64,000 nt of DNA. Origin: a virus. The stretch spans positions 1 to 64,000 of the IMG/VR virus record IMGVR_UViG_3300027872_000002. One strand, written 5' to 3'. Made by a program: the position numbers and the translations under genes. Under the pieces are notes generated by a model. It saw nothing but the letters and a program-made list of their open reading frames with translations. It was not told the origin of the DNA and did no database searches. Position 1 is the first letter of the stretch, and each line of letters opens with the position of its first letter. This document shows, piece by piece, positions 3,339 to 61,660 of this stretch.

Positions 3339-3339
3339 G

Positions 3340-5319: not shown

Positions 5320-5388
5320 TCTAAGGCCCCAGGGTGGTTCGGGTAACCTCTCGGACCTCCTGGGGCCTCCACACGTGGGAGAGAGGAA

Positions 5389-46398: not shown

Positions 46399-46800
46399 AT
46401 GAGCAAAGTGTATGTCGTTCAGGACCCTATGATCATGCGGGATGGCCGCAAGGAACGCAGGTTCAGTTTGGCCCCTGCTGAAGAATATGGAGAGTTGGTT
46501 TTTCTGCTGGGCTGGAATGATACAAGGGGATTGGGAGTCAAGCCTGGCGCAGAGCGCAGATTGTACCGGACACTCCGGTATAACCTGCGTGAGTTCAATG
46601 ACTCGGACTATCTGTTGATGACCGGGAATTGGACGGCTATGGCGATGGCCGTCGTGTGTGCTCTGGAGCATACTCGTGGCTTCGTGAGTTGCCTCCAGTG
46701 GGATCAGGAGGATCGTGAGTACAGGGTCATCGCAATTGATGTCAACCTCGATGACGATGACGAGAATTGGACACCAGAATTGGAGAATGAAGATGAGTGA
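46399..46800 (+). CDS. hypothetical protein
   Basis: 133 aa with a TAAATG junction and an acidic C-terminus. Confidence 0.5.
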   Translation: MSKVYVVQDPMIMRDGRKERRFSLAPAEEYGELVFLLGWNDTRGLGVKPGAERRLYRTLRYNLREFNDSDYLLMTGNWTAMAMAVVCALEHTRGFVSCLQWDQEDREYRVIAIDVNLDDDDENWTPELENEDE

Positions 46801-47314
46801 TCTAACCAACTTGGTCGCGCTGGCCGAGGAGATGGTCAAGCTTGAGTATGCAATCGCAGATATTGACGACCAAAGGAAGGCCCTGGCGGGTCTGTACAGG
46901 GCTATCGAGGAGAGTGACCTACCAGAAGCTATGGAAGCGGCAGGGGTTGCGGACTTCACCATGAAGGACGGGAGGAAGGTCACGACCAAAACCCGCACCC
47001 ACACTCACATTTCCGAGGACCACCAAGAGGGAGCTTTTGAATGGCTCCGGGTCAACGGCCATGATGATATCATCAAGCGCATGATCTCTGTGAGCTTTGG
47101 GAAAGGAGAGGACAAGAAAGCTGAGGCCCTGTATGCCTTGCTCGTCAAGCGAAAGGGCCTGTCCGATAACTCGATTGTAGGCAAGCAATCCGTTCACGCT
47201 TCAACCCTCAAGTCATTCGTGACTAAGGCACTCGCTGCGGGCGAGGAGATCCCGCACGACCTCTTTGGAATTCACCAGGTCCCAATCGCAGTTATTGGGT
47301 CGGTGAAGAAGTAG
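46793..47314 (+). CDS. hypothetical protein (possibly recombination/replication associated)
   Basis: Internal ATG 46793 of ORF 46715..47314. N-terminal coiled coil. Sits next to the SSB-like gene. Confidence 0.45.
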   Translation: MSDLTNLVALAEEMVKLEYAIADIDDQRKALAGLYRAIEESDLPEAMEAAGVADFTMKDGRKVTTKTRTHTHISEDHQEGAFEWLRVNGHDDIIKRMISVSFGKGEDKKAEALYALLVKRKGLSDNSIVGKQSVHASTLKSFVTKALAAGEEIPHDLFGIHQVPIAVIGSVKK

Positions 47315-47378: not shown

Positions 47379-48236
47379 ATGGCAACGAAAAAAGGAAAGG
47401 CAGTAGCAAAGAAGGAAGGCCAGACTGGCTTGGCACTCTCAGAGTATGGCGAGGATGCTGGGGCAGGGTTTGAAGACGTCACGCAAGCAGACCTTATCAT
47501 TCCATTCCTGAACGTCATGCAGAAGATGTCTGACTTGGTTGATGAGGAGCACCCGTCTCATGTGACGGGAGCCAAGGCTGGGATGCTGATGAACTCGGTG
47601 ACCGAGGAGCTTCATCCTGGCCAAGAAGGGATCCTGTTCATCCCAGTCCATAAGACCCATAAGTTTGTCGAGTGGGTCCCACGGGATCAGGGTGGCGGAT
47701 TTGTGGGGGTCTATGAGGTCTCAGACCCAATGGTCATGGAGGCTCGCAAGGGCCATGAGTTTGGGAGGGTTGAGAGCCCAGACGGCAATGACCTCGTGGA
47801 GACCTTCTACATGTTCGGTCTGGTGGTGGACGTTGATGGGGGATACAATCCAGCCGTCATCGCATTCGCCAGCACCCAGATCAAATCCTACAAGAAATGG
47901 ATGACGACGATGAGGTCAGTCCAGCTTGAGGATCCGGAGACGGGCAGAAGGATCACACCTCCAATGTTCTCGCATCTTTTCAGGGTGCGCACGAGGCATC
48001 AGGAGAACGCCAAGGGCTCGTGGCATGGGCTCAATATCACATTCGCCAAAGAGGGAGATCCCAAGGAAGGCGTGAGCCCTGCTGTGGCCTCCCGGATCAG
48101 CGTGGATGATGAACTCTACCAAGCGGCAAAAGAGTGCCGCAGTATCGTGGTTGAGGAGGGTGCCAAGGTCTCCTATGAGACTTCCGGCAAGGGTGGAGAG
48201 GGTGGAGATGGAGACGGTGGGGATGACGATTTTTAG
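47379..48236 (+). CDS. single-stranded DNA-binding protein, T7 gp2.5-like (tentative)
   Basis: 285 aa. The C-terminus GGEGGDGDGGDDDF is an acidic tail ending in an aromatic residue, as in gp2.5/SSB proteins. Located in the replication module. Confidence 0.45.
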   Translation: MATKKGKAVAKKEGQTGLALSEYGEDAGAGFEDVTQADLIIPFLNVMQKMSDLVDEEHPSHVTGAKAGMLMNSVTEELHPGQEGILFIPVHKTHKFVEWVPRDQGGGFVGVYEVSDPMVMEARKGHEFGRVESPDGNDLVETFYMFGLVVDVDGGYNPAVIAFASTQIKSYKKWMTTMRSVQLEDPETGRRITPPMFSHLFRVRTRHQENAKGSWHGLNITFAKEGDPKEGVSPAVASRISVDDELYQAAKECRSIVVEEGAKVSYETSGKGGEGGDGDGGDDDF

Positions 48237-48326: not shown

Positions 48327-49877
48327 ATGTCTGAACTGGCTGAGCGATTTTTTGCTCGCTTCCGAGGATTGGATCGTGCGTTTGGTCTGTACGGATTGAA
48401 AGGAAAAGCCAAGAAGGGCCAGAAGCATCTTGGATCCGCCCAGACCTATCGAGAGGCCCCGCATGCGGGCCTCTGGCACGACCACTTGGAGGGCAAAACT
48501 ACTCTTGGAATAGTCCCCATCTGTGATGATGGTACAGCTTGGTTTGGCGCCATTGATATTGACGTGTATGATGGGCTCGACCACAAGGCCATTGCTGAGC
48601 AGATCCTCGCCTGGGACCTTCCGTTGATCGCTTGCCGGACCAAATCCGGAGGGCTCCATCTGTACCTGTTTTGTCGCGACTCGATACCGGCAGAATTGAT
48701 CCGTGGCAAGCTCATGGAGTGGAGTGTCCAGCTTGGCTTCTCCGGAGTCGAGGTGTTCCCCAAGCAGACCCGATTGGCCAACACCTCAGACGTTGGCAAT
48801 TGGATCAACATGCCCTACTTCGGTTGCGAGACTGCCACAGGGAAGGACAAGGGCAAGGGAGACCGCTATGCCATCTTCAACGGCAAGGCTCTGACGGCTG
48901 AAGCATTCCTCAAACTTGCCGAGACAATTGCGGTTGATACAGATAGTCTCAGGTCTGTGGCTGTCCCAACTGATGACCCATCCCAAGGACTCCTCCGGGA
49001 GGGCCCACCGTGCCTCCAAACTCTCCACCAACGTGGCGGGATCCGGGAGGGTGGAAGGAACAATGGACTCTTCAACATCGGAGTCTATCTGAGGAAGCGA
49101 TTTGGCCAAGGAGAATGGGAGGCCCACTTGGATGAATACAACCAGGCTCTCCTTGATCCTCCGTTGGGCCATAAGGAAGTCTTGCAGATTGTCAAATCCG
49201 TCAATCGCAAGGCGTATGAATACAAGTGCGCAGACCAACCAATCTGTGACGTTTGTAATCGCCAGATCTGCCTGTCCCGTGAGTTTGGTATCGCCACCGG
49301 GGAGGGAGACCCTGGTGTGACGTTTGGGCAACTGATCAAGGTGGAGACGGATCCCGTGACTTGGATCTGGGATGTGGACGGGGCACGCATCGAGCTAACC
49401 ACCCAGGAGTTGAAAGACCAAGCTCGATTCCACACGAGAGCTATGGAGGAATTGAACAAGTGGCCGTTGGCGGTCAAGGCTCCGGACTGGGCCAAGATCG
49501 TTCGGCAATATTTGGAGTCCGTCGAGATCATGACGGTTCCGGAGGATGCCAAAATGACGGGCCAGGTCATGTTCTTCTTGGAGTTGTATTGTACACGAGA
49601 GACCCGTGCCCTCAACCGCGATGATCTACTGAAGAAGAAACCATGGACCGACGATGGCCGTGTCTACTTCCATGGACCAGACTTCCGCCAGTTCTTGGCC
49701 AAGCAAGGTCTCCGGATGAGGCCTGGGGATCTTTGGAATCAACTCAGGGAGAGAGGCGCTGAGCCGCAGTTCTTCAACATCAAGGGCCAAGGGATCAACG
49801 TCTGGAGCCTCCCAGCCTTCAAGGAGCAGGATGAGGCGTTTGACGTTCCCATGATCGAGAGCCAAGGAGAGATGTAA
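48327..49877 (+). CDS. primase-polymerase (archaeo-eukaryotic primase superfamily) with a C-terminal extension
   Basis: 516 aa. AEP motif I AIDIDVYD, motif II KSGGLHLYLF, then a PriCT-like PPCLQTL...GGRNNGLFNIGVYL. Confidence 0.6.
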   Translation: MSELAERFFARFRGLDRAFGLYGLKGKAKKGQKHLGSAQTYREAPHAGLWHDHLEGKTTLGIVPICDDGTAWFGAIDIDVYDGLDHKAIAEQILAWDLPLIACRTKSGGLHLYLFCRDSIPAELIRGKLMEWSVQLGFSGVEVFPKQTRLANTSDVGNWINMPYFGCETATGKDKGKGDRYAIFNGKALTAEAFLKLAETIAVDTDSLRSVAVPTDDPSQGLLREGPPCLQTLHQRGGIREGGRNNGLFNIGVYLRKRFGQGEWEAHLDEYNQALLDPPLGHKEVLQIVKSVNRKAYEYKCADQPICDVCNRQICLSREFGIATGEGDPGVTFGQLIKVETDPVTWIWDVDGARIELTTQELKDQARFHTRAMEELNKWPLAVKAPDWAKIVRQYLESVEIMTVPEDAKMTGQVMFFLELYCTRETRALNRDDLLKKKPWTDDGRVYFHGPDFRQFLAKQGLRMRPGDLWNQLRERGAEPQFFNIKGQGINVWSLPAFKEQDEAFDVPMIESQGEM

Positions 49878-51635: not shown

Positions 51636-52154
51636 ATGACGATTCAAGCAATCCCAACACACTACGCCAACCACAAATTCAAGAGCCGCACAGAGGCTCG
51701 ATGGGCAGTGTTCTTTGACAGCATGAAAATTCGCTGGGAGTATGAGCCAGAGGGAGTGGTGCTGCCGGATGGGACATGGTATCTTTGCGACTTCTGGTTG
51801 CCTGATTTGAAGGTGTGGGCTGAAGTCAAGCCTGAGGAGATCACTGATGCGGAATGGACCAAGGCAGAGGAGCTTCACAGGGTCAGTGATTTCTCAGTAC
51901 TGATGCTGAATGGAGCGCCCTGGCCAAAGTGGTATGGGGCCACTGATCATCGAGGCCCTAATGAAGGCGATGTCTGTGGTGATTATCCTTGGCCCAATCG
52001 CCAACACTTCTGTTGGGGCAAGAACATTATTTGGTGGGGGTTCGGAGATGAGTGGGAGGATCTGGAAGGCACCATTCCGTCTGAGCCTATTGTAAGAGAA
52101 GATTGGGAAGATGCCATGGCATATGCCAGAGCTTTTGACTTCTTGGCTCAATGA
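51636..52154 (+). CDS. PD-(D/E)xK-fold nuclease (tentative)
   Basis: 172 aa. FKSRTEARWAVFFDSMKIRWEYEPEG...YLCDFWLPDLKVWAEVK fits the D...E.K restriction-endonuclease-like core. Confidence 0.5.
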   Translation: MTIQAIPTHYANHKFKSRTEARWAVFFDSMKIRWEYEPEGVVLPDGTWYLCDFWLPDLKVWAEVKPEEITDAEWTKAEELHRVSDFSVLMLNGAPWPKWYGATDHRGPNEGDVCGDYPWPNRQHFCWGKNIIWWGFGDEWEDLEGTIPSEPIVREDWEDAMAYARAFDFLAQ

Positions 52155-53635
52155 AGCTCATCCTTGGAGGACCTGGTTGCGGCAAGACCACTCGACTCCT
52201 CCGGGTTGTTGAGCAAGAATTGGATAATGGCGTGCGCCCTGATGAGATTGCTTTCGTGACCTTTACTCGCGCTGCTGCGAATGAGGCCAGGGATCGTGCC
52301 GCCCTCAAATTTGATCTCGACCCTGAGACGGACATGCCTTGGTTCCGGACCATCCACAGCCTCACATATCGAGCCCTGGATATGACCAGGGAGGAAGTCA
52401 TGAGCCGGGATGATTGGAACGAGTTCAGCAAGCTCATCGGGGAGCCCATCGCTGGAACGGTATCGAGCTTTGAAGCATCGACCAACGCCCACCATGGAGA
52501 CAAGCTCTTGAGGGTGGTCGATTATGCCGCCACAACCAAGCAATCTCTCCGGGAGGCATGGAACGAAATTGGTGATGAGACGGCATGGCGTGACGTGGAG
52601 CAATTTGAGGCTGCGCTGCGTGAGTTCAAGACCGCCATCGCAAAGATTGGATTCACTGACATGCTCACCAGCTATGTGGCTGAAGGTGAGCCGGTGAAGG
52701 TGAAGGTGGCGTTGGTCGATGAAGCCCAAGACCTCACAGCCGCGCAATGGAGCGTGGTGGGGCGGGCATTTGAGAATGTGGACCGGCTCTACATCGGTGG
52801 CGATGATGACCAAGCAATCTATCGTTGGGCCGGTGCCGATGTTGAGCATTTCCTCCATCTCTCGACTGGCGGTGACCGGGAGATTCTGGAGCTATCCCAT
52901 CGACTCCCAAGGAGCGTTTTTGAGGTTGGCCAAAGGATCGTGACCCAGATCTCAAATCGCTATCAGAAACCATACCGTCCATCAGATCGGGATGGTGTCG
53001 TGGACCATCATATGCATATTGAGTATGCTCCTCTCCGGAACCAATCTGGGAGTTGGCTCCTGTTGGCGAGGAATGGGTACATGCTGGAAGGTTTGGAGGA
53101 AGTTTTGAGGGCTCGTGGGCTCCCATATGCCAGGAGGACCGGCCCCGTGGCCTCTGAGAAGGAGCTAGACGCGATTGCTCTGTGGGATTCCCTGCAGAAG
53201 GGCCGCATTTCTGTGCTCTCCGCGTCTGAGGCCAGGGGTCTGTATAAGACCCTGGGTAGACCACGCCCAGCGCTTAGGGAGCTAACAGAGTATGGGCCAG
53301 GAGAGCTTGAGTTGGACCTCGCCAAACCTTGGACCTATGCCATGGCCGGAGGGATCCCAACCTGGAGGCGCGACTACTACACAGAGTGTATGAACCGGGG
53401 AGAAAATTTGAGGCTTGAGCCAAGGTTCCGAGTGGAGACAATTCATGGGGTCAAGGGAGCCCAGGCCGACAATGTTCTGATGCTCCTCGACTACAGCCGG
53501 AGGACCGCCAACGGATTCAACCTCAAACCTGATCATGAGCATCGAGTGTTCTATGTCGGAGTGACCAGGGCCTACCATTCTCTTCACATCATCCGTCCCC
53601 AAACATACAACTCATATCCAGGGCTGTCGCGATGA
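52151..53635 (+). CDS. UvrD/Rep-like SF1A helicase
   Basis: 494 aa. Walker A GGPGCGKTT, VDEAQDLT, TIHGVKGAQADNV, FYVGVTRA. Confidence 0.8.
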   Translation: MKLILGGPGCGKTTRLLRVVEQELDNGVRPDEIAFVTFTRAAANEARDRAALKFDLDPETDMPWFRTIHSLTYRALDMTREEVMSRDDWNEFSKLIGEPIAGTVSSFEASTNAHHGDKLLRVVDYAATTKQSLREAWNEIGDETAWRDVEQFEAALREFKTAIAKIGFTDMLTSYVAEGEPVKVKVALVDEAQDLTAAQWSVVGRAFENVDRLYIGGDDDQAIYRWAGADVEHFLHLSTGGDREILELSHRLPRSVFEVGQRIVTQISNRYQKPYRPSDRDGVVDHHMHIEYAPLRNQSGSWLLLARNGYMLEGLEEVLRARGLPYARRTGPVASEKELDAIALWDSLQKGRISVLSASEARGLYKTLGRPRPALRELTEYGPGELELDLAKPWTYAMAGGIPTWRRDYYTECMNRGENLRLEPRFRVETIHGVKGAQADNVLMLLDYSRRTANGFNLKPDHEHRVFYVGVTRAYHSLHIIRPQTYNSYPGLSR

Positions 53636-53692: not shown

Positions 53693-54262
53693 TTGAAGAG
53701 TATGGTCACACGAATCGCATTCCCAACCCCATCCTCCGTGGACATCCGCGAGTATGCGGATATGAAGGTGGCGGAAGCATCAACGTCTGGCATCGCAACA
53801 GGCGCAGTTTACATCTTTGCGGAACTCACCCCAGAGTCCATCCAGGTCCTCAACCTTGGCCAGATGGACGTGATCATCGGTCTGTACAACAGGATAGTAA
53901 AGCGCATCACAATTCCAGCGTTCAAGCCAGAAGCCACACTGCTCTGCTTGGACATAATTCCAGTACTTGCCAAGGAGGCAAATCAGATGGCGACCAAGAA
54001 GACAACCCCAGCCAAGAAAAGCCCAGCAGCCAAGAAGCCAGCAGCCAAGAAGGCTCCGGCAAAACGGTCATCTGGCTTGGAGGGCAAGAAGCTCTTCAAA
54101 ACTGGGGAGAGGGAGAAGGGCAAGGGCCACAAGAACTCAAGGCGTGCCGTGTCCTACTCGTTGATCAAGAAGGGCATGAAATACGAAGCTGCCATCGCAG
54201 CCGGAGCCCACAAGGACGACATCGCACGGATGTTGTACGACAACCAGTTGGAAGCCAAGTAA
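53693..54262 (+). CDS. Lys/Ala-rich (histone H1-like tail) DNA-binding protein candidate
   Basis: 189 aa with the central segment KKTTPAKKSPAAKKPAAKKAPAKR. The alternative-frame ORF 53632..54342 is rejected. Confidence 0.45.
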   Translation: MKSMVTRIAFPTPSSVDIREYADMKVAEASTSGIATGAVYIFAELTPESIQVLNLGQMDVIIGLYNRIVKRITIPAFKPEATLLCLDIIPVLAKEANQMATKKTTPAKKSPAAKKPAAKKAPAKRSSGLEGKKLFKTGEREKGKGHKNSRRAVSYSLIKKGMKYEAAIAAGAHKDDIARMLYDNQLEAK

Positions 54263-54276
54263 ACTTCCAACCCATC

Positions 54277-54333
54277 GGTAGGCCAGCGAGCCTACCGCAA
54301 CCCCACTTGCCCATCGAGGGTGAGTGGGGTTTT
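54277..54333 (+). terminator. tandem hairpins ending in a T-run (intrinsic terminator)
   Basis: First hairpin GGTAGGC-CAGCGA-GCCTACC (54277-54296). Second hairpin CCCCACTTGCCC-ATCGA-GGGTGAGTGGGG (54301-54329, 12 bp including 2 G-U) followed by TTTT. Confidence 0.6.
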
Positions 54334-54356
54334 CACGTCTAGGGGATACGTCCAAA

Positions 54357-55310
54357 ATGCGAATCATCGGCGCAGGAATGGCAGGGCTGCTGGCCGGCAA
54401 TATGCTCAGACGATACCAGCCCAATATTTTGGAGGCCAACCGGGAGCTACCGGACAACCACGGGGCACTCCTCCGTTTCAGATCCAACGTGGTAGCTGAG
54501 GCCGTGGGCCAACAGTTCCGGGAGGTGTCGGTGATGAAGGCCATCCGGCATTCCACGGGCATGCTATCCTCCGGACCTCCAGACCTGTCCCAAGTCAATC
54601 GCTACTCCATCAAGGTGACCGGGAGAGCGATGCCCAGGAGCATCATGAACCTCGATACTGTCCAGCGGTGGATCGCTCCTGATGACTTCCTTGAGGTCTT
54701 GGCCCAAGGGGTTGGCGGGCAGATCTTTTTGGACAGCTATGTCAACATGGATGGGATCCGAGGAATGGTGGAGCAAGGGCTCCCGATCATCAGCACGATT
54801 CCAATGGGGTCTCTGATGAGCATGATGCCGGGATGGGATGACCGGGAACCTATCTTTCCAAGGACTCCAATTTGGTCGCTCAGGGCTCGCATCATGGGGC
54901 TCCCGGAAGTGGACGTTCATCAGACCATCTACTACCCAGGGCGTGAGCCATTCTATCGAGCTTCGATCACAGGCAACCTCTTGACGGTTGAGTATCTCCA
55001 AGAGCCGGCAGCGGTGGGCCAGACGGAGGGATTGCGGCTCATCCTTCAAAACGATTTTGGGATCGAGGTGAAGCCGGAGTCCATCACCTTCAAGGCCATC
55101 TACTTCCAACCCTTGGGCAAGATCCTCCCCATTGATGAGGAGATGCGGAGAGAGTTCATATTGGAGATGACAGACCGCTACAAAATCTACAGCCTGGGGA
55201 GGTTCGCCACCTGGCGTCAAATACTCTTGGACGATGTCGTGAATGACATACGTATGATTGATAAATGGATCACTGGTAGAGACTCATACAGACGGAGAAT
55301 TGAATCATGA
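54357..55310 (+). CDS. FAD/NAD(P)-binding Rossmann flavoprotein (UDP-galactopyranose-mutase/amine-oxidase-like, subfamily uncertain)
   Basis: Internal ATG 54357 of ORF 54324..55310. Dinucleotide-binding MRIIGAGMAGLLAG. The C-terminal YSLGRFATWRQILLDDVV resembles the GR..Y.Y..MD motif of UGM-like enzymes. Confidence 0.55.
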   Translation: MRIIGAGMAGLLAGNMLRRYQPNILEANRELPDNHGALLRFRSNVVAEAVGQQFREVSVMKAIRHSTGMLSSGPPDLSQVNRYSIKVTGRAMPRSIMNLDTVQRWIAPDDFLEVLAQGVGGQIFLDSYVNMDGIRGMVEQGLPIISTIPMGSLMSMMPGWDDREPIFPRTPIWSLRARIMGLPEVDVHQTIYYPGREPFYRASITGNLLTVEYLQEPAAVGQTEGLRLILQNDFGIEVKPESITFKAIYFQPLGKILPIDEEMRREFILEMTDRYKIYSLGRFATWRQILLDDVVNDIRMIDKWITGRDSYRRRIES

Positions 55311-56101
55311 AAGTCACGCTCATTAGTCACACACCCAATGCCCTGGCAACCTTGGTCTATACCAAGAGCACCAGGCTCAGCATGACGGCCACTGGCTTCG
55401 ATCAGATTTTGGCGATGCCGGAGGAGAAGCTGATGGAGGAATGGGAGTACATGAAGAACACCATCAAGAGCAGTTGGGAGTTCCTGGAATTTCTGTTCTT
55501 GATTGAGGACGTATCGAGGGCCTTCACCCATCAGTTGGTTCGCCATCGGATTGGTACCAAGTTCGCCCAGCAGTCGCAGAGGACCGTGGACATGGGAGGG
55601 TTTGGATTCATCATGCCTCCGCCAGGACTCGATGACCCTGGGATAGCTGACGAGTTTGAGTTGGCTTGCGAGAGCATTGATGACTCATACCAACGCCTCA
55701 TATCTGTCCATGGAGTGAAGCCTCAAGACGCACGGGCCTTGCTCCCAACGAACGTGAGCACCAACATCAACTTCGGCTCCAACCTCCGGACCCTTCATGA
55801 CATGGCTCGGCTCCGGCTCTGTACCAAGACGCAAGGAGAGTTCCAAGACGTGTTCAGGGCCATCAAGGCTGAGGTCCATCGAGCCCTCCCATGGGCCGCC
55901 ACGGTCCTCCAAGTCGAGTGTTGTTGGAGCGGCACGTGCGCCTTCCCTACGTTCCCAACGGAGGACTGCGTACTCAAGCCCCACGTGTACGATCCAACGA
56001 CTGGTTCGGCATATCAAATCAAGCCAGGCTTGCTACACGAGAAGAAGCCATCCACCCTTGTCCAGCTTCGTGAGATTGACGCCACAAGGGGCAACGGATG
56101 A
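55307..56101 (+). CDS. thyX: flavin-dependent thymidylate synthase ThyX
   Basis: 264 aa. ThyX motif RHR-X8-S-X-R present (HQLVRHRIGTKFAQQSQR). Confidence 0.8.
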   Translation: MKVTLISHTPNALATLVYTKSTRLSMTATGFDQILAMPEEKLMEEWEYMKNTIKSSWEFLEFLFLIEDVSRAFTHQLVRHRIGTKFAQQSQRTVDMGGFGFIMPPPGLDDPGIADEFELACESIDDSYQRLISVHGVKPQDARALLPTNVSTNINFGSNLRTLHDMARLRLCTKTQGEFQDVFRAIKAEVHRALPWAATVLQVECCWSGTCAFPTFPTEDCVLKPHVYDPTTGSAYQIKPGLLHEKKPSTLVQLREIDATRGNG

Positions 56102-56454
56102 AGCCCTGGGTAGGGGTGGACTTGGACGGCACGCTGGCCTTCTATGACCACTTCCAAGGAGCCGGTCATATTGGGGAGCCCGTGCCACGGATGCTCAAGT
56201 TTGTCCAGGGTCTCCTCGATGATGAGGTTGAGGTCAGAATCTTCACGGCTCGCGTGGGGCTCCAGCAGGATCCTCGTGACATCCAGATCGCCAGGAGCAA
56301 GATCCAAGAATGGTGCCTCATCCATCTGGGGCAGGTCCTCCCGGTGACCTGTGAGAAGGACTATGGAATGGTGACCCTGTATGATGACCGTTGTATCACC
56401 ATTGAGAAGAACACAGGACGGCTCTTGACAATCTTGGAGGATGATGATGGCTAG
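56098..56454 (+). CDS. HAD-superfamily phosphatase-like protein
   Basis: 118 aa. Motif I VGVDLDGTL, then IFTAR. ATGA overlap. Confidence 0.55.
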   Translation: MKPWVGVDLDGTLAFYDHFQGAGHIGEPVPRMLKFVQGLLDDEVEVRIFTARVGLQQDPRDIQIARSKIQEWCLIHLGQVLPVTCEKDYGMVTLYDDRCITIEKNTGRLLTILEDDDG

Positions 56455-56764
56455 ACCAAACCGGGAGCACCAAGCTCTCATGAAATCCATCTTCAAGGAA
56501 TCGCTTGCCACGATCATCGAGCGAGAGGCATTGTACGGATCCGGTTCAGGGGATCTAGGAAGGGCCTTGCACGCGTTATTCCCTGAGGGGGTGACCCTAG
56601 ATACCCCTGAGGACTTCGCACGCTTCTCCGACTTCCAGCAAGTGGTCGCCAAACTCAACCGATACGCCAAGAGCTTCAGTGACGGAGGGCATCTGGATTC
56701 GATCCATGACGCCGGCAATTATGCCAAGCTCCTTGAGGCCCAAGACCGGAGGGCAGCAGAATGA
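56441..56764 (+). CDS. all-alpha MazG/DUF1599-like protein (tentative)
   Basis: 107 aa. YGSGSGDLG ... KLNRYAK ... DSIHDAGNYAKLL resembles the DUF1599 / NTP-PPase helical pattern. Confidence 0.4.
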   Translation: MMMARPNREHQALMKSIFKESLATIIEREALYGSGSGDLGRALHALFPEGVTLDTPEDFARFSDFQQVVAKLNRYAKSFSDGGHLDSIHDAGNYAKLLEAQDRRAAE

Positions 56765-57636
56765 AGCGCAAGGTCTGGATGATCTTTCCAAGCCACAACC
56801 AGGACTGGGCCACGACCATGATTGGATCCTTGGAGCACATGGAGCATTTCATGAAGTGCTACAACGTTGGGATCCTGGTCCACGCCCAGTGGCCGCACAC
56901 GCGAGCATCCGTGCGAGAGATGAGGGATGCGTTTCTGGATCACGGGGCCAAATCTTGGCACGATGTCTTCAGCACCCAGAGCGTTGTCAAGAGTTGGAAG
57001 ATGGAGGAGCTTGGCTGTCCAATCGCCACCATACGCAATGCGTGTTTCCGTGGGACGGTCATCGAGCCGGGAGACATCATCTTCAACCTGGACGATGACT
57101 TTGAATTCTCGGGTGGGACTCTCAAGTACCATTGGTCATCTGGCGACCATTACTCAGACGTCATCGAGTACATGTTTGATAATCCGCGATGTGGGTCGGT
57201 GATGTGTACGGGCCACCTTGGCGGGACTGGAAAGGAGCGCACAATCTATCCACGAGTCCACGACCTGTGGGCGACCAATCGTGGTTTGTTTCTCCTCCGG
57301 ATCCCAGAGATGAAATTGCCGTTGGTTCCCACCTGGTCTCTCCGGATGAGAGGAACGATGGAGGAGACCGCCATGGTGTACTCAAGGATCGCTGAGGGCC
57401 TGTATCCTGCCAAGACGATGAACTGTCCGACCATCCATCGCAATGCGGGGAATGCGTCCAGAGACGCCCATGACGATCCACTCCACTACATCGAGTATCA
57501 ATACCTTCACACGACCAAATACATCCGTGAGAAATGGGACCAACCGGACTGGGACTATGAGAAGCGGAGATTGCCCCAGGGGCTCATCAAAGAATACCTG
57601 GAGGCCGGTGGGGATCCGGAGATGTTGAGGACATGA
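56761..57636 (+). CDS. GT-A fold (family 2-like) glycosyltransferase candidate
   Basis: 291 aa. N-terminal VWMIFPSHNQ and a DxD-type IIFNLDDDFEF. Confidence 0.5.
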   Translation: MKRKVWMIFPSHNQDWATTMIGSLEHMEHFMKCYNVGILVHAQWPHTRASVREMRDAFLDHGAKSWHDVFSTQSVVKSWKMEELGCPIATIRNACFRGTVIEPGDIIFNLDDDFEFSGGTLKYHWSSGDHYSDVIEYMFDNPRCGSVMCTGHLGGTGKERTIYPRVHDLWATNRGLFLLRIPEMKLPLVPTWSLRMRGTMEETAMVYSRIAEGLYPAKTMNCPTIHRNAGNASRDAHDDPLHYIEYQYLHTTKYIREKWDQPDWDYEKRRLPQGLIKEYLEAGGDPEMLRT

Positions 57637-58196
57637 GCGCCAGGATCCTGGTTCTGGATTTGGAGACCACTTGGCTCAGGGGGCCGGAGGCTCTGCCCAT
57701 CGACCAGCAGCCGCGCATCATCGAGGTGGGCGTGGCCGTTCTCAGCAAGACCAAGGGCCTCAAAAAATTGGAGACCTTCAGCACCTTCCTCAACCCCGGC
57801 ATTCCCATCCCGGAGGAGAGCGTCAAGATCACGGGCATCACGGATGAGATGGTGGCTGAAGCGCCATCGTTCCCAGGGGTCTATAATCGACTGGTGGAGT
57901 TGTTCTATGGTTGCCGGATCCTCGTGGCCCACAACCTCTCGTTTGATCGAGCGGTGTTGATCTCTGAGCTTGAGAGGATTGGACGGCCATACCAATTCCC
58001 GTGGCCACCGGAGCACATCTGTACAGTCGAGGAGACCGAACATCTGAAGGGCAAGATGCTCAAGCAAAAGGACCTGTACCAACTCGCCACCGGAGAGGAA
58101 GCCAACCAAACCCATCGAGCCCTCGATGACGTTGATCAGTTGGTCACGATCCTCCGTTGGATCCAGAGAGAGGAGAACCCACCATGGCTGAGGTGA
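57633..58196 (+). CDS. dnaQ: DnaQ-like 3'-5' exonuclease (DEDDh)
   Basis: 187 aa. ExoI VLDLETT, ExoII VAHNLSFDRAVL, ExoIII HRALDDV. Confidence 0.8.
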   Translation: MSARILVLDLETTWLRGPEALPIDQQPRIIEVGVAVLSKTKGLKKLETFSTFLNPGIPIPEESVKITGITDEMVAEAPSFPGVYNRLVELFYGCRILVAHNLSFDRAVLISELERIGRPYQFPWPPEHICTVEETEHLKGKMLKQKDLYQLATGEEANQTHRALDDVDQLVTILRWIQREENPPWLR

Positions 58197-58197
58197 T

Positions 58198-61059
58198 ATG
58201 ATCCATTTGAGATTGCGGACTGAGTTCAGTTTCCGGAGGGCTTATGGGCGACCATCGCAGGTCCTCGATGCCCTTGGTCCCAACCCAATCGCTGCCGGCA
58301 TAACGGACACCGGAACCTGGGGCCACGTGACGTGGTGGAAGCAATGTCGAGAGGCAGGGGTCAAGCCAATCCTGGGGGCGGAGGTCCTGTGCGTGCCGGA
58401 TCCCTTGGACAAGACTCGCCAGACCGGACCCATGGTTGCTCTTTTGGCCACCTCTGAGAAGGGCCTGGGGGAGCTATACCGGCTCATGAGTCGAGCCAAC
58501 GGGGCAGATCAATTTTACTATGTCCCACGCACAAGCTACGATCAACTGAACAAGACCTCTCCCGGCATCGTGGTTCTCTCCGGAGCCAATGCGGATCTGG
58601 GAGCCTTGAAGGATCGTGAGAACGTCTGGTTGGAAATGACTCCTGGCAACAGCGCTTGGAATCGGAGAGTGGCCAGTGAGAAGGGTTGGAAGAAAGTGGT
58701 CACCGGCAACAACCTATACCCAAGGACGGAGGACAATGAGGTTTATGAAATCTTGGCCGGTCGCAATCGGCGCACTCGTATCAGTGGCACTCATATTCAG
58801 AGCCACGAGGAGCTTGCGCTTGATATCCCGCAAGCAGGACCCTCAGAGTTTGCTGCGTCGCATCAGATCGCAGGGCTTGTAGACATCCAAGGTCTGCCAC
58901 AAAGCGTGATGGTCACGGAGGACTGGCCAAAGGATCTGTTGACCCTCTGCCAAGAGGGCATCAAGTATCGAGGCTTCACCAAGACCGGCAAGCTCCGGTG
59001 GACGGCTGCGTATGAGGCCAGGATGAAGCATGAGTTGAAGATGCTCCGGGACAAGGATTTTGAAGACTACTTCCACGTCATCACAGACATGGTCGTTGGG
59101 GCCAAAGATGCCGGGATGTTCGTGGGACCGGCTCGTGGTTCCGCTGCCGGCTCGCTGGTCTGCTATCTGCTCAGGATAACCGATGTGGATCCAATCCTTC
59201 ATGACCTCATGTTTGAGCGATTCGTGGACGTGACCCGCAGCGACCTCCCGGACATTGATATTGACTTCCCTGATGTGAAGCGGGAGGATGTGATCCAGCA
59301 ACTCAGGGATCGCTGGGGAGAGGACCGGGTTGGGAGGTTTGGAACGGTCATGAGATACAAGCCCAAGAGTGCGATTGGCGATGTGGCTCGTGAGCTGAAT
59401 ATCCCGCTGTGGGAGGTCGAGGATGTGAAGGGCACGATCACTGACCGTAGCTCCGGCGATGAGCGTGCCGCATTCGGTGTAGCAGACGCCTTAGATGACA
59501 CCGAGGTAGGAAGGGCCTTGGTGGAGAAGTATCCTGGTATGCGGCTGGCAGGGGTGATCGAGGGCCACGCGAGACAGAGCGGAATGCATGCGGCTGGAGT
59601 CCTGGTGACCGAGAGTCCTTTGACGGACTTCGCTGCGGTCACTCGGGATGGGATGGCCCAGATCGACAAGAAGGATGCTGACGCCTTGGGGATGCTCAAA
59701 ATTGACTGCCTTGGGCTCCGGACTCTCTCTGTCTTGGAGGACTGTCTGGCCCAGATCGGGAAGGATCCCGAATGGCTGAACAACTATCCTCTCGATGATG
59801 AGGAAGCGTTTGAGGTTCTCAATGAGGAAAGGTATGCCGGCATCTTCCAGTTTGAGGGATATGCCCTCCAAGCTCTCTGTCGGGAAATGAAGATCAGGGA
59901 CTTCAGCGACATCGCATCCATCACGGCCCTGGCCCGTCCTGGCCCTCTCCATTGTGGGGCTGCCAGCGACTTCGTTGCCCGGAGATTGGGGACCCAAAAA
60001 ATCGAGGAGCTTCACCCAATTCTGACAGAGGCTGCGAGCGACAGCTATGGGACCGTCATCTACCAAGAGCAGGTCATGAAGGTTTGCCGGGAGATGGGCC
60101 AGTTCAGTTGGGAGGATGTGACGATGATCCGTCGCATTATGTCCCAGAGCTTTGGTGATGAGTTCTTTGCGAGGTACTGGGAGAAGTTCAGGAAGGGAGC
60201 AGCCAGCGTTGGCGTGGATGAGGAGACGGCACAGATCGTTTGGGACAAGATCTGCACGTTTGGATCGTGGGCCTTCAACAAGTCTCACGCCGTGTCGTAT
60301 GGACTCATCTCATACTGGTGCTGTCTCCTCAAGGCCCACCATCCCCTGGAGTTTGGAGCAGCCTGTCTCCGCAACACCAAGGGTGACGATCAAGCCATCA
60401 AGATCCTCCGGGAGCTTATGACTGAAGGAGTCGCATTCACGCCGGTCGATCCAGACCACTCTGGGCTCACTTGGGAGGTCCATGAGGGCCGGTTGATTGG
60501 AGGGTTGACCAACATCAAGGGCATCGGTCCAGCCAAGGCTCGCGACATCATGAGGAGACGCGATGAAGGCAAACCGATGACCCCAGGACTGGCCAAAGCT
60601 CTGCTGGATCCGGAGACGCCATTTGATCGACCATTTGAAGCCAAGGATAGATTTGGGGACATGTACGACAACCCCAGCGACCATGGGATCAATTCTGGAG
60701 GAGTGTCACGGATCCAGGACATCCACGAGGCCGGAGAGTATGTGTTCATCGGCAAGCTTGTACAGCGGAAATTGCGGGACATGAATGAGGCGTTCACAGT
60801 AGCCCAACGTGGGGGTCGATTGATCAAAGGTCGGACCAGATTTTTGAACCTAGTTTTGGAGGACGATAGTGGCCAGATCATCGGCAAGGTGACACGGGAC
60901 CGATACCACAAATTGGGCAAGCCAATCGTTGAGGAAATGAACAACGGTGACTACTGTCTTTTCAAGGGCATTGTGCGCGATGGATGGCGTATCGTTTACA
61001 TCAAAAAATGGAGGTATCTTGAGGGCAAGGATGCCCCACCTTTGGAGGCTGTAAATTGA
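58198..61059 (+). CDS. dnaE: DNA polymerase III alpha subunit-like (C-family) polymerase
   Basis: 953 aa. N-terminal PHP-like region, GPARGSAAGSLVCYLLRITDVDP, FERFVDVTRSDLPDIDIDF, FNKSHAVSY. Confidence 0.9.
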   Translation: MIHLRLRTEFSFRRAYGRPSQVLDALGPNPIAAGITDTGTWGHVTWWKQCREAGVKPILGAEVLCVPDPLDKTRQTGPMVALLATSEKGLGELYRLMSRANGADQFYYVPRTSYDQLNKTSPGIVVLSGANADLGALKDRENVWLEMTPGNSAWNRRVASEKGWKKVVTGNNLYPRTEDNEVYEILAGRNRRTRISGTHIQSHEELALDIPQAGPSEFAASHQIAGLVDIQGLPQSVMVTEDWPKDLLTLCQEGIKYRGFTKTGKLRWTAAYEARMKHELKMLRDKDFEDYFHVITDMVVGAKDAGMFVGPARGSAAGSLVCYLLRITDVDPILHDLMFERFVDVTRSDLPDIDIDFPDVKREDVIQQLRDRWGEDRVGRFGTVMRYKPKSAIGDVARELNIPLWEVEDVKGTITDRSSGDERAAFGVADALDDTEVGRALVEKYPGMRLAGVIEGHARQSGMHAAGVLVTESPLTDFAAVTRDGMAQIDKKDADALGMLKIDCLGLRTLSVLEDCLAQIGKDPEWLNNYPLDDEEAFEVLNEERYAGIFQFEGYALQALCREMKIRDFSDIASITALARPGPLHCGAASDFVARRLGTQKIEELHPILTEAASDSYGTVIYQEQVMKVCREMGQFSWEDVTMIRRIMSQSFGDEFFARYWEKFRKGAASVGVDEETAQIVWDKICTFGSWAFNKSHAVSYGLISYWCCLLKAHHPLEFGAACLRNTKGDDQAIKILRELMTEGVAFTPVDPDHSGLTWEVHEGRLIGGLTNIKGIGPAKARDIMRRRDEGKPMTPGLAKALLDPETPFDRPFEAKDRFGDMYDNPSDHGINSGGVSRIQDIHEAGEYVFIGKLVQRKLRDMNEAFTVAQRGGRLIKGRTRFLNLVLEDDSGQIIGKVTRDRYHKLGKPIVEEMNNGDYCLFKGIVRDGWRIVYIKKWRYLEGKDAPPLEAVN

Positions 61060-61481
61060 GTACAGAATCAGGGCTCTGGGGACTCATCAGAAAGAGCCAT
61101 CCTGAGGGCCATTGGGTCAGGGTTGAGAACCGTGTCGAGCTTGGGACTCCTGACGTCAATTTCTGCCTCCCAGGTGGCTTTGAAGGATGGGTAGAATTGA
61201 AGGTGGTATCGAGATGGCCAGTGCGTGGCGGTCCTCTCCGGACTCCCCACTTCACCAAGGAGCAAAGGTGGTGGCTCAGGACTCGGACCAAGTATGGAGG
61301 CCATGCTGGATTGCTCCTCAGAGTGGACAAAGGTCCCAAGCGATATTTGTTGCTGCCTGGGGCTTGGGCTGCGGACTATCTTGGCGAGGAGACTCAAGAA
61401 GTTTTGGAGCAGAGAGCCGTGGGAGTTTGGGGTCCCAACTTTGACAAATATGAACTCATGAGAGCCGTGAAGCTCCTGTAG
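61056..61481 (+). CDS. VRR-NUC / PD-(D/E)xK nuclease-like protein
   Basis: 141 aa. GTPDVNFCL...GWVELKV fits the D...ExK core. Followed by the hairpin AGGGCC-TAT-GGCCCT. Confidence 0.5.
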   Translation: MSTESGLWGLIRKSHPEGHWVRVENRVELGTPDVNFCLPGGFEGWVELKVVSRWPVRGGPLRTPHFTKEQRWWLRTRTKYGGHAGLLLRVDKGPKRYLLLPGAWAADYLGEETQEVLEQRAVGVWGPNFDKYELMRAVKLL

Positions 61482-61660
61482 CGCCAAAGGGCCTATGGCC
61501 CTATGTTGTTCCCGAATCAGCCGCCACAGAATTGGAGATTTGGCTGGATAGGGTGCGTCATTACTCGTGTTCCAAAATAGGCCCATTTTCAGGTAGCCAA
61601 TCGCTCCAATCTCAGCGTATCTTTGATGTAGGGAATGATCCCTGAAACGAGGAGATTGAA

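Follow-up and report, generated by a model that had tools for sequence, protein, structure and literature searches.

The thymidine hypermodification pathways of phages phiW-14, SP10, ViI and M6 are said, in work attributed to Lee et al. from 2018 and 2021, to consist of a dUMP hydroxymethylase, a 5-hmdU DNA kinase and an aGPT-Pplase, together with PLP, radical-SAM or FAD tailoring. The known products of these pathways are listed in PMC6449724. A sugar-type hypermodified thymidine at TG was described in the DNA of the Pbunaviruses F8 and 14-1 (2025 preprint, PMC12191111); the modified nucleosides, with masses of 362 and 390, are sugar alcohol or aldopentose derivatives, and the authors report that these phages lack known modification genes. 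Wifceviruses are insensitive to every tested RM system except EcoP1_I and have no known protection mechanism (PMC11990801).

The window analysed here, a whole stretch of 64,000 nucleotides of viral DNA, carries a cluster of five genes (g1-g5), four of which have counterparts in Pbunavirus; hypermodification was demonstrated only in F8 and 14-1 (PMC12191111), where no gene has been assigned to it. The cluster resembles the phiW-14, SP10, ViI and M6 pathways in that it adjoins the replication genes of a lytic phage, thymidine is the target base in its relatives and the products confer restriction resistance. However, the enzymes that define those pathways were absent among the scanned window ORFs, the thymidylate synthase is ThyX rather than a ThyA-type hydroxymethylase, and the relatives carry a sugar or sugar-alcohol adduct instead of an amine or amino acid. 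Because the relatives that bear the core genes carry a sugar-modified thymidine of unknown genes, the cluster is a testable candidate for the Pbunavirus-type pathway. The reading that we prefer, to which we would give an even chance, is that the module makes a sugar-decorated thymidine, with g5 (an SDR or Mom in other lineages) as the lineage-specific decorating enzyme.

Organisation and conservation of the operon

The operon covers 54357-61481, with a hairpin at each end, and joins g1-g5 to dnaQ, dnaE and one further gene. The features of the region are:

52151..53635, + strand: UvrD-type SF1 helicase, conserved neighbour upstream of the module (Pfam UvrD-helicase, 5.7e-30)
53693..54262, + strand: K/A/P-rich histone-H1-like protein (KKTTPAKKSPAAKKPAAKKAPAKR), last gene before the hairpins (from its translation)
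54277..54333, + strand: tandem hairpins and TTTT, terminator- or attenuator-like 5' boundary of the operon (sequence and RNA fold)
54357..55310, + strand: g1, FAD-binding flavoprotein of the phage-only family phrog_4828 (1.2e-61)
55307..56101, + strand: g2, ThyX flavin-dependent thymidylate synthase with a Cys-rich C-terminal extension (Pfam Thy1, 7.1e-34, 117.7 bits)
56098..56454, + strand: g3, putative minimal capless HAD-type phosphatase (VDLDGTL; phrog_1238, 4.4e-6; phrog_415, 3.1e-5)
56441..56764, + strand: g4, small helical domain protein (phrog_4889 positions 248-325 of 339, 5.5e-11)
56761..57636, + strand: g5, predicted GT-A fold glycosyltransferase of a rare phage family, insert in a variable slot (fold matches)
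57633..58196, + strand: DnaQ-like 3'-5' proofreading exonuclease (Pfam RNase_T, 4.4e-25; phrog_192, 1e-36)
58198..61059, + strand: DnaE-type DNA polymerase III alpha subunit (37% identical to the 14-1 DNA polymerase across 826 aa)
61056..61481, + strand: operon gene 8, in the position of Pbunavirus ORF54 (phrog_2165, 5.8e-31)
61488..61502, + strand: hairpin 3' of gene 8, AGGGCC-TAT-GGCCCT, a terminator-like site

The ORF check found all five genes where the preliminary description had placed them. That description took them for a discrete operon, but it does not end at g5: the operon continues through dnaQ, dnaE and gene 8 to the hairpin at 61488-61502, its likely end. ATGA stop/start overlaps join g1/g2, g2/g3, g4/g5 and g5/dnaQ, g3 and g4 overlap by 14 nt, and gene 8 overlaps the dnaE stop codon; translational coupling from g1 to dnaQ through the ATGA overlaps counts in favour of the module. 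What had been proposed as a terminator at 54333 is a hairpin pair (54277-54329; dG -42.6 kcal/mol, z -4.86, equalled by 0 of 200 shuffles) followed by TTTT. The consensus terminator scan did not flag this pair because its T-run has only 4 bases; in Wifcevirus WFH, an annotated terminator occupies the corresponding position. The histone-H1-like protein, probably DNA-binding, matched nothing in Pfam or PHROG, and K/E/A-rich proteins occupy the same position in Pbunavirus (ORF66) and Wifcevirus (WFH_67). A terminator or a low-complexity DNA-binding gene precedes the module in the window and in Pbunavirus. In most IMG/VR loci, and in a Tara contig (L007), g1 is preceded by the gene of a UvrD homologue.

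Gene order and strand are identical to those of ORF65-ThyX-ORF57-exonuclease-DnaE in the Pbunaviruses PB1, 14-1 and F8, with identities of 35-36% for g1 (ORF65), 38% for ThyX, 36-37% for DnaQ and 37% for DnaE. ORF54 of 14-1 lies directly 3' of the polymerase gene, as gene 8 does in the window, and DnaE Pfam domains were recorded in the syntenic loci. On the other hand, five small ORFs separate the flavoprotein gene from ThyX in Pbunavirus and are absent from the window, and only the window has a GT-A gene inserted before dnaQ. The structural genes of the two show no detectable relation, and the replication module (35-38% identity) is the sole part of the window detectably common to it and 14-1.

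Beside the module, conserved proteins common to the window and 14-1 are a Pam3_Gp34-like protein (47379-48236) and an ORF52-like protein (46715-47314).

The order g1-ThyX-HAD-g4-DnaQ-DnaE is kept in Pbunavirus, Wifcevirus, a Ralstonia phage and marine contigs, and in 39 of the 44 longer IMG/VR loci. ThyX lies 3' of g1 on the same strand, at a median gap of 8 nt, in all 74 IMG/VR loci that extend at least 1.5 kb beyond g1; the 80 IMG/VR loci, being those of the closest relatives, are not independent samples. The g1-ThyX pairing also occurs in Pbunavirus, Wifcevirus, a 40-kb Ralstonia phage, Rhizobium Cuauhnahuacvirus, Tara contigs and the loci L011, L014 and L015. The claim that the five genes form a co-evolving system could not be sustained, since the backbone of g1, ThyX, HAD and g4 occurs in more than 1000 phage lineages, most of them without g5. 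Elsewhere the variable slot holds other enzymes of modification type, namely an SDR (14 of 44 loci), Mom (L018) or a methyltransferase (L011), and in L015 also a dCMP deaminase and a MazZ-like pyrophosphatase. Under the preferred reading, g1-g5 form the first half of a conserved phage operon in which deoxynucleotide and DNA chemistry would be coupled to the DnaQ/DnaE replicase.

The flavoprotein, ThyX and the split HAD pair

The g1 protein starts with MRIIGAGMAG and further on carries GRFATWRQILLDDV. It has 2696 homologues, none of them named, in 1205 clusters at 50% identity, and the family appears to be restricted to phages: a pattern scan, sensitive to close g1 relatives only, gave a single match in 185,579 genomes, on a phage-sized contig in a MAG. 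With the AF2 model (pLDDT 88.3), the top Foldseek matches in the PDB were UDP-galactopyranose mutases (UGMs; TM 0.62-0.64 normalised to g1), and PPO, PDS, NicA2 and renalase also scored high. The top 11 matches of a profile search against PDB sequences were all UGMs, at E-values of only 0.0015-0.018. Like UGMs, especially those of the eukaryotic type (PDB 4dsg, 5vwt, 3uka), g1 has an FAD Rossmann GxGxxG and an acidic residue ending beta-2, and the ISTxP, Y(F/Y)PE..(F/Y)YRA and YSxGRFxxWR motifs align, the latter two also being lined up (as YFPE..FYRA and YSxGRFxxWR) in the profile alignment. The arginines aligned with the FYRA and GRF motifs are conserved in g1 (R201 invariant, R282 nearly so); the corresponding arginines of UGM contact the UDP diphosphate and the flavin. 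Unlike UGMs, which have about 365-520 aa, g1 has 317 aa, being shorter by about 60-190 residues; it covers only 43-51% of the UGM structure (TMt), so that a domain is missing, and it gave no Pfam GLF match. Its family is also confined to phages and coupled to ThyX, a coupling that we know of for no UGM. In one lineage g1 is fused to a YfbR-like 5'-deoxynucleotidase, which we count in favour of the preferred reading. The fold and the profile thus bear out the proposal of a UGM- or amine-oxidase-like flavoprotein, and suggest that g1 is a distant, truncated relative of UGM.

The assignment of g2 as ThyX is confirmed by its Pfam Thy1 match, and g2 has the RHR-x7-SxR motif (RHRIGTKFAQQSQR); against TIGR02170 it scored 87.4, just below the cut-off of 87.9. 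For g3, the HAD phosphatase assignment may stand tentatively on the DLDGT motif and the phrog_1238 match, together with BLASTP matches to a HAD_PNKP protein of L008 (1e-4) and a phrog_1238 protein of L011 (2e-4), but g3 fell below all Pfam thresholds. The MazG/DUF1599-like identity proposed for g4 reached threshold in no library, and Pfam and NCBIfam gave no match; BLASTP related g4 to the C-terminus of WFH_63 (1.9e-17), L015_174 (4e-21) and ORF57 of 14-1 (1e-5). These matches indicate that g3 corresponds to the N-terminal domain of Pbunavirus ORF57, and g4 to the C-terminal domain of ORF57 and of Wifcevirus WFH_63. Thus, g3 and g4 would be the two halves, HAD and helical, of the Pbunavirus "PNK/phosphatase", a single gene there and two genes here. 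The two are fused in Pbunavirus, Wifcevirus and L014, and fused homologues match Pfam HAD_PNKP at 42.3 and 33.5 bits. The DxDxT motif and these matches recall T4-type polynucleotide kinase/phosphatase; however, a kinase domain is found nowhere in the family, and the partner of the HAD is a small helical module in place of a P-loop kinase.

It is possible, if rather unlikely, that the module merely conditions the nucleotide pool for replication, with ThyX making dTMP, g1 acting as an accessory redox/flavin partner or nucleotide-directed oxidoreductase that supports ThyX, the HAD/g4 pair being a nucleotidase or a PNKP-like DNA 3'-phosphatase for pool cleaning or end repair, and g5 an unrelated accessory gene that arrived by chance in a permissive slot. 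The location within the replicase operon, the HAD_PNKP matches, the fusion of g1 to a YfbR-like 5'-deoxynucleotidase in one lineage, the absence of a glycosyltransferase from most lineages and the contents of the L015 slot all suit this explanation. However, ThyX is not known to need a protein partner in any studied system. Flavin reductases that serve other enzymes have, as far as we know, a different, smaller fold, and the nearest relatives of g1 are UGMs, not reductases. Moreover, at least six separate lineages have g5 in the module, a recurrence not easily ascribed to chance, and pool conditioning would leave Pbunavirus hypermodification without any candidate genes.

The glycosyltransferase candidate

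The g5 protein carries IFPSHN and NLDDDFEF and belongs to a family of only 12 clusters in 5.8e9 proteins, with no Pfam, PHROG or NCBIfam match. The GT-A fold proposed for it was confirmed with the AF2 model (pLDDT 83.7), whose Foldseek matches in the PDB were all GT-A (TarS, AvpGT, K4CP, PcManGT, TarP and others; best E 7e-6), and its BFVD matches comprised GT2 and GT-A proteins as well as one TET-associated GT. Conservation is complete at D111 and D112 and nearly so at D113, R92 and E201. This R...DDD...E pattern (R92, D111-113, E200/E201) is reminiscent of the R...DDD...EDY/F of the phage GT-A DNA glycosyltransferases that act on 5hmC, the trypanosome base-J glucosyltransferase JGT and S. 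aureus TarP/TarS (bioRxiv 10.1101/2023.12.21.572611), with which g5 also shares the fold and, as for the phage enzymes, a neighbourhood of thymidylate synthase and DNA polymerase genes. Nevertheless, the third motif is EET instead of EDY/F, TM-scores are only 0.45-0.52, with no membership at the sequence level, and no 5mC oxidase or hydroxymethylase partner was found among the scanned window ORFs.

Among g5 homologues with enough flanking sequence (L017 is too short to judge), those in the window, L011, L014, L015, L019, L053 and L101-L107 all lie in the g1-ThyX-HAD-(g4)-DnaQ/DnaE module, usually adjoining the HAD gene. The remaining ones belong to Rhizobium Cuauhnahuacvirus phages, which have g1 and ThyX in their genomes too, and a distant one lies in a locus with ThyA-like, dCMP-deaminase and TAGT-like genes. 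The proposed check for co-occurrence of flavoprotein and glycosyltransferase with ThyX in other phages was therefore positive for g5 homologues with context. We conclude that g5 is a lineage-specific insert, one of several alternative occupants of the variable slot.

The preliminary description also offered a sugar-nucleotide pathway that glycosylates virion proteins or host surface glycans rather than DNA. Here g1 would yield a furanose nucleotide-sugar, such as UDP-Galf or UDP-Araf, for g5 to use. The UGM-like character of g1, the wall-teichoic-acid glycosyltransferases TarS and TarP among the best matches of g5, the SDR in the slot of relatives and an FkbM-family methyltransferase gene in the window (3181-4008) are in keeping with it; such methyltransferases are frequent in glycan clusters. 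We consider it very improbable, since the genes lie within the replicase operon, away from structural and lysis genes and at a distance of 50 kb from the FkbM gene, and since g1 occurs without g5 in more than 1000 lineages and lacks the extra UGM domain and the GLF match. In addition, relatives of g5 adjoin gyrase, DnaE, DnaQ, ThyX, ThyA-like and dCMP deaminase genes, and TarP and JGT are the closest structures of validated phage DNA GT-A enzymes, TarP being their top PDB match too (bioRxiv 10.1101/2023.12.21.572611).

A possible route to sugar-decorated thymidine

The observed gene structure, folds, family relationships, synteny and co-occurrence are consistent with a module that builds a sugar-decorated thymidine in phage DNA, as reported for Pbunavirus, and by analogy with these relatives the DNA of the window phage may be modified. 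The enzymatic activities and substrates that we infer are as follows. ThyX would supply thymine or C5-methylene chemistry, and g1 would bind FAD along with a sugar or nucleotide substrate that bears a phosphate, and would forge or remodel the sugar part; in UGM, such sugar chemistry proceeds via a flavin-N5 iminium. The HAD/g4 pair may take phosphate off an intermediate, and g5 may move a sugar from a nucleotide-sugar to the modified base, or lengthen its glycan, through a DDD metal site like the TarP-/JGT-like GT-A enzymes that glycosylate 5hmC in other phages. For activation of the thymine methyl, no TET/JBP dioxygenase, ThyA-type hydroxymethylase or 5-hmdU DNA kinase was found among the scanned ORFs. 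As Pbunaviruses make their adduct without a recognisable glycosyltransferase, g5 would be dispensable for it.

Several points count against this preferred reading, among them the two just given and the shortness of g1 and its lack of a GLF match. Most g1-bearing phages lack g5, and g1 is tied to the modification by association, as further conserved proteins are common to the window and Pbunavirus. The mark is TG-specific, which implies action on DNA, while UGM-type and ThyX enzymes act on free nucleotides. The papers on Pbunavirus (PMC12191111) and Wifcevirus (PMC11990801) nonetheless back the earlier idea of a hypermodification locus, if not that of a discrete five-gene system.

Other genes could be responsible for the Pbunavirus modification, such as the hypervariable ORF70, the Pam3_Gp34-like ORF51, ORF52 or early-region genes; g1 and the HAD/g4 pair would then be unrelated to it and g5 would modify DNA or nucleotides in the window phage by an independent route. 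Between F8 and 14-1, identity is only 57% in ORF70 but 94-99% in its flanks, and the two phages carry different adducts; the Pam3_Gp34-like and ORF52-like proteins fit as well. We regard this possibility as improbable, because homologues of ORF70 are confined to Pbunavirus-like Pseudomonas phages, with none in the window, because ORF70 has no detected enzyme domain, and because g1 is the sole shared protein with a cofactor-dependent, sugar-nucleotide-type fold.

Layout of the operon

Five neighbouring genes on the + strand at 54357-57636, here termed g1 to g5, lead into dnaQ and dnaE in the following arrangement.

54357-55310, + strand, g1, ORF for a flavoprotein resembling UDP-galactopyranose mutase (UGM)
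55307-56101, + strand, g2, ORF for ThyX
56098-56454, + strand, g3, ORF for a putative HAD protein
56441-56764, + strand, g4, ORF for a small helical protein
56761-57636, + strand, g5, ORF for a predicted GT-A glycosyltransferase
57633-58196, + strand, dnaQ, ORF
58198-61059, + strand, dnaE, ORF
61056-61481, eighth gene, directly after dnaE
61488-61502, hairpin after the eighth gene, from the terminator scan

The seven ORFs from g1 to dnaE (54357-61059) are arranged head to tail, with ATGA stop/start overlaps at four gene junctions and a 14-nt overlap between g3 and g4. The discrete five-gene operon of the preliminary description is therefore too narrow, as the operon spans at least eight genes, the replicase included. 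On its 5' side, two hairpins followed by TTTT ending at 54333 lie 3' of the stop codon of a K/A/P-rich protein. This hairpin pair folds with a dG of -42.6 kcal/mol (z -4.9) and was not flagged by the consensus terminator scan because its T-run is short.

The K/A/P-rich, histone-H1-like protein directly upstream of the operon (53693-54262, + strand) has counterparts at the same position in Pbunavirus (ORF66) and Wifcevirus (WFH_67), which are K/E/A-rich, of low complexity and carry a small conserved C-terminal domain. These features suggest a DNA-binding partner that is conserved together with the module. The possibility that Pbunavirus ORF66 is a hidden glycosyltransferase was ruled out, given its K/E/A-rich low-complexity character, and its apparent divergence between phages F8 and 14-1 is an artefact of the BLAST low-complexity filter.

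The encoded proteins

All the motifs quoted in the preliminary description were found in the translations. The g1 protein belongs to PHROG 4828 (phrog_4828, 1e-61), annotated as function unknown, and has 2696 homologues in a set of 5.8 billion proteins, none of them named, each about 310 aa long and from source contigs of up to ~70 kb; at 50% identity the family forms 1205 representative clusters. It has the FAD-binding Rossmann fold of UGM, G5, G7 and G10 of the GxGxxG motif being invariant and E26, the acidic residue after beta-2, nearly so. With an AF2 model built from 44 sequences (pLDDT 88.3), the top PDB fold matches in Foldseek were UGMs (TM 0.62-0.64 relative to g1), and protoporphyrinogen oxidase, phytoene desaturase, nicotine oxidoreductase and renalase also ranked high. 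A single-sequence search of the PDB gave nothing useful; a 78-sequence profile searched against PDB sequences returned UGM entries in the first eleven places, the best being the T. cruzi UGM (E 0.0015). The profile alignment spans ISTxP, Y(F/Y)PE..(F/Y)YRA and YSxGRFxxWR, and R201 and R282 of g1 align with the FYRA and GRF motifs in 4dsg and 3uka. Across the 78 sequences R201 is invariant and R282 nearly invariant. In UGMs, the arginines of these two motifs contact the diphosphate and the flavin.

The three-domain UGM architecture with its helical uridine-binding domain is not found in g1, which has 317 aa as opposed to 365-520 aa and covers just 0.43-0.51 of UGM chains in Foldseek; since it is far shorter and covers about half of their structure, a domain is missing. 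The Pfam GLF model gave no match, and Pfam and NCBIfam together yielded sub-threshold Rossmann matches only. Thus, of the earlier assignment to UGM- or amine-oxidase-type flavoenzymes, the fold stands on the Foldseek and PDB profile matches, but g1 is not a canonical UGM. A pattern scan of 185,579 prokaryotic genomes, sensitive to close relatives only, gave one match, on a phage-sized contig in a MAG. In one lineage g1 is fused to a YfbR-like 5'-deoxynucleotidase; the fusion lies at 2671-4191 of the metagenomic phage L018, whose module also carries a Mom-family DNA-modification gene at 6846-7415, between DnaQ and a helicase.

The identification of g2 as a ThyX, judged by its sequence, was borne out by Pfam Thy1 (117.7 bits against a cut-off of 24.8, full model 1-191 covered) and by the RHR-x7/8-S-x-R signature, present in the translation as RHRIGTKFAQQSQR. 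The score against the NCBIfam equivalog TIGR02170 is narrowly below the trusted cut-off (87.4 against 87.9 bits). Beyond the Pfam domain g2 has a C-terminal extension of 68 aa (residues 197-264, window positions 55895-56101), which is Cys-rich (ECCWSGTCAFPTFPTEDC...); its ThyX relatives range from 213 aa in marine contigs to 305 aa in Pbunavirus. The reaction predicted for g2 is that of ThyX enzymes, from dUMP to dTMP with CH2-THF and NADPH.

The g3 product, previously called a minimal HAD phosphatase, carries motif I DxDxT at the end of beta-1 (VDLDGTL, residues 6-12), matches phrog_1238 (4.4e-6) and phrog_415 (3.1e-5) and gives a BLASTP match to a HAD_PNKP protein (1e-4), but neither HAD_PNKP nor any other Pfam HAD model scored above threshold; the fused homologues that combine the HAD and g4 parts do exceed the HAD_PNKP threshold. 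The g4 protein matches the C-terminal 80 residues of PHROG 4889 and the C-termini of Pbunavirus ORF57, Wifcevirus WFH_63 and L014_275, all of which have HAD_PNKP domains as N-termini, so that g3 and g4 correspond to one two-domain protein, split. WFH_63, of a length similar to g5, was considered as a g5 homologue and discarded, being such a fusion. The MazG/DUF1599-like label given to g4 found no backing: g4 and its homologues match neither the MazG clan nor DUF1599 in Pfam or NCBIfam, the lone signal in the family is DUF6378 (E 0.015, in one of five proteins), and the PDB profile search gave POU-domain matches at chance level only. Its KxxR / DSxxDxxNY pattern may resemble that of DUF1599. 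HAD subtype and protein pI were uninformative as discriminators.

For g5, the expected GT-A fold was recovered in an AF2 model (pLDDT 83.7, pTM 0.86) whose significant PDB matches are all GT-A enzymes (TarS, AvpGT, K4CP, PcManGT, GnT-I and TarP) and whose matches among BFVD viral models are likewise GT-A only, one being a TET-associated glycosyltransferase. We therefore regard it as a predicted GT-A glycosyltransferase. Its relatives form only 12 clusters; the 11-member family matched no curated glycosyltransferase family (Glycos_transf_2, TAGT) in Pfam, PHROG or NCBIfam, Pfam giving matches at chance level for all 11, and neither the sequence nor the family profile found a relative in the PDB. 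In the DxD motif (IIFNLDDDFEF), D111 and D112 are invariant and D113 is at least 90% conserved among 11 sequences. Set against the R...DDD...EDY/F pattern of phage DNA-base GT-A (JGT-like) enzymes, g5 has R92, D111-113 and E200/E201, but its third motif reads EET instead of EDY/F. Phage GT-A enzymes validated on 5hmC have TarP and JGT as nearest structures, and their genes adjoin thymidylate synthase and polymerase genes (bioRxiv 10.1101/2023.12.21.572611). A pathway for non-DNA glycans we consider very unlikely.

The metagenome protein P0125 (478 aa) is 81% identical to g5 over its C-terminal 64%; where the N-terminal half of the GT-A domain would be expected, it has 290 N-terminal aa of unrelated sequence, the result of either chimerism or faulty assembly.

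A conserved core with a variable slot

Searched as nucleotides, 54300-58200 matched none of 50,697 phage records, so relatives are found at the protein level only. At that level the order flavoprotein-ThyX-HAD(+g4)-DnaQ-DnaE recurs in Pbunavirus 14-1, Cisa and F8, in Wifcevirus WFH, in a 40-kb Ralstonia phage, in Tara Oceans contigs, where g1 and ThyX overlap, and in the metagenomic phages L011, L014, L015 and L018; in the Rhizobium Cuauhnahuacvirus g1 and ThyX are 2.4 kb apart. A sample of 80 IMG/VR loci consists of the closest relatives, which are thus not independent samples: ThyX lies downstream of g1 on the same strand in 74 of the 74 loci with at least 1.5 kb downstream (median gap 8 nt), and of the 44 longer loci 39 have all six genes of this arrangement in order, 14 have a short-chain dehydrogenase (SDR) after g4 and only two have g5. 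The g1-ThyX-HAD/helical gene set is small, conserved and apparently phage-only, common to Pbunavirus, Wifcevirus and more than 1000 metagenomic lineages.

Homologues of g5 lie between ThyX/HAD and DnaQ/DnaE, often right after the HAD gene, in L011, L014, L015, L019, L053 and L101-L107, and in Rhizobium phages they adjoin gyrase genes in genomes that also encode g1 and ThyX. Co-occurrence with the g1 and ThyX module, which the preliminary description had proposed to check, was confirmed for g5 homologues with readable context, the short contig L017 apart. Its placement in these neighbourhoods marks g5 as accessory: it requires this nucleotide/replication context, or is at any rate always found in it, and the core is independent of g5. 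An SDR stands in the same position in some other lineages; elsewhere it is a Mom-like enzyme, a methyltransferase, or the pairing of a dCMP deaminase with a MazZ-like pyrophosphatase. Instead of a unit of five genes, the system is a conserved core beside which one slot, for decorating enzymes, varies, and rare GT-A, SDR and Mom genes occupy that slot.

Several of these loci have features of their own. The most distant g5 homologue, in the region 253-9206 of L017, has as neighbours an HD protein, SbcCD, a thymidylate-kinase-like protein, a ThyA-like protein that is possibly a hydroxymethylase, a dCMP deaminase, a second glycosyltransferase with a sub-threshold TAGT match, and a dUTPase; the region looks like a classical hydroxymethyl-pyrimidine glycosylation locus. 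The DnaQ-DnaE interval of L015 (9300-10798) encodes a dATP/dGTP pyrophosphohydrolase (PF04447, MazZ-like), a Sequestin-domain protein and a dCMP deaminase, which hints at further nucleotide-pool editing. DnaE carries a C-terminal uracil-DNA-glycosylase (UDG) domain in L011 (9305-13024) and L014 (8853-12644).

Proposed role in thymidine hypermodification

Pbunaviruses are among the Pseudomonas phages most used in therapy. Virion DNA of F8 and 14-1 resists enzymes with TG in their site and contains new nucleosides of 362 and 390 Da, with about a quarter of thymidine replaced; the authors stress that Pbunaviruses are without the genes earlier tied to hypermodification, and the sugar-type modification sets off END-nuclease defence (Yee et al. 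2025, preprint, PMC12191111). Wifcevirus is insensitive to every restriction-modification system tested except EcoP1_I, without explanation (PMC11990801). In the literature we found no paper assigning genes to the Pbunavirus modification.

It is about an even call that the module supplies all or some of the genes still lacking for sugar-type thymidine hypermodification in this large phage group, with g5 as a lineage-specific glycosylating step in the window phage. We favour this reading because g1 is the sole conserved phage-specific cofactor-dependent enzyme with sugar-nucleotide ancestry common to Pbunavirus, Wifcevirus and the window, because translational coupling ties it to ThyX, which makes the substituent at thymine C5, because a phosphatase pair accompanies it, and because modification-type enzymes repeatedly insert beside it. 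The case for the g1 module rests on association. Searches of 25 larger window ORFs outside the structural region against Pfam, PHROGs or NCBIfam recovered no dUMP hydroxymethylase (ThyA-like), 5-hmdU DNA kinase or aGPT-Pplase, the enzymes of classical thymidine hypermodification of the 5-HMUDK / aGPT-Pplase type, and no thymine-methyl-activating step. Moreover, the TG specificity of the mark implies chemistry on DNA, yet the homologous enzymes act on free nucleotides. A module for ordinary nucleotide-pool chemistry, beside which the glycosyltransferase is unrelated, is a less probable explanation, though one to be taken seriously. We would class the module as a variant among phage DNA hypermodification systems; the earlier comparison with such loci is partly supported, but not for a unit of five genes.

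How such a mark might be made can be sketched, though we rate this reading as rather improbable. We infer that the g1 family could be the key enzyme of an undescribed flavin-dependent route to sugar-hypermodified thymidine, in which the hydroxymethylase, kinase and aGPT-Pplase machinery would all be dispensable. UGM proceeds through an acyclic flavin-N5=C1(sugar) iminium, and in ThyX the uracil C5 attacks a flavin-N5=CH2 iminium before hydride return; on this basis, an enzyme of UGM type working with ThyX could attach a sugar to uracil by alkylation. In a first version, g1 coupled to ThyX would link a sugar carbon straight to uracil C5, and the adduct would be an open-chain 'sugar alcohol' after reduction but a 'circularised' one after addition of an internal OH. 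In a second, g1 would act as an oxidase, taking hydride from the thymine methyl in DNA, and a sugar hydroxyl would add. In either, g5, the SDR and Mom would vary the mark further, each in its own lineages, as additions to the common route. By arithmetic on the reported masses (PMC12191111), the uracil C5 substituents are C5H11O4 for 362 Da and C6H11O5 for 390 Da, and both versions are isomeric with these nucleosides: an O-linked tetritol or pentose on 5-hmdU, or a C-linked 1-deoxypentitol or hexosyl whose 'methyl' carbon is sugar C1.

The analysis puts forward specific candidate genes for a question that has newly arisen in phages of therapeutic importance. If the hypermodification reading is true, it would mean new enzymology for DNA hypermodification, phrog_4828 would be a marker gene to predict modified genomes, and the restriction resistance of therapy phages and their sensitivity to modification-dependent nucleases would be explained in part.

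It is improbable, in our estimate, that the Pbunavirus modification genes lie elsewhere, and some proteins outside the g1 module bear on this. By BLAST, the window resembles Pbunavirus 14-1 in the replication module only (~44.9-61 kb) and its structural and lysis genes have no similarity, so the genome is mosaic, or distantly related outside the module. The sole other non-replisome proteins that BLAST finds common to both are a Pam3_Gp34-like protein (47379-48236, + strand, Pfam 220.8 bits; ORF51 in 14-1), for which there was no PDB match and nothing useful in the literature, and a 199-aa protein (46715-47314, + strand; ORF52 in 14-1); both are alternative candidates for the modification pathway. 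The Pbunavirus protein ORF70 (L001 1913-3217 and L099 2013-3209, both - strand) is only 57% identical between phages 14-1 and F8, with flanking genes at 94-99%, and 32% to 100% identical across the genus; the thymidine adducts of 14-1 and F8 also differ (PMC12191111). ORF70 has no domain, PDB relative or window homologue, and it remains an alternative candidate for the Pbunavirus modification.

Elsewhere in the window, two long minus-strand ORFs (1896-2918 and 5125-6024) were rejected as genes, having no phage homologues and so being probably spurious. The FkbM-family methyltransferase cited earlier is real (3181-4008, + strand, TIGR01444 46.7 bits against a cut-off of 37.7; no match in Pfam) and lies 50 kb from the cluster. 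An archaeo-eukaryotic-type primase is encoded at 48327-49877 (+ strand), with a PriCT_1 domain and the AEP domain to which Pfam gives the name of the TOTE conflict system.
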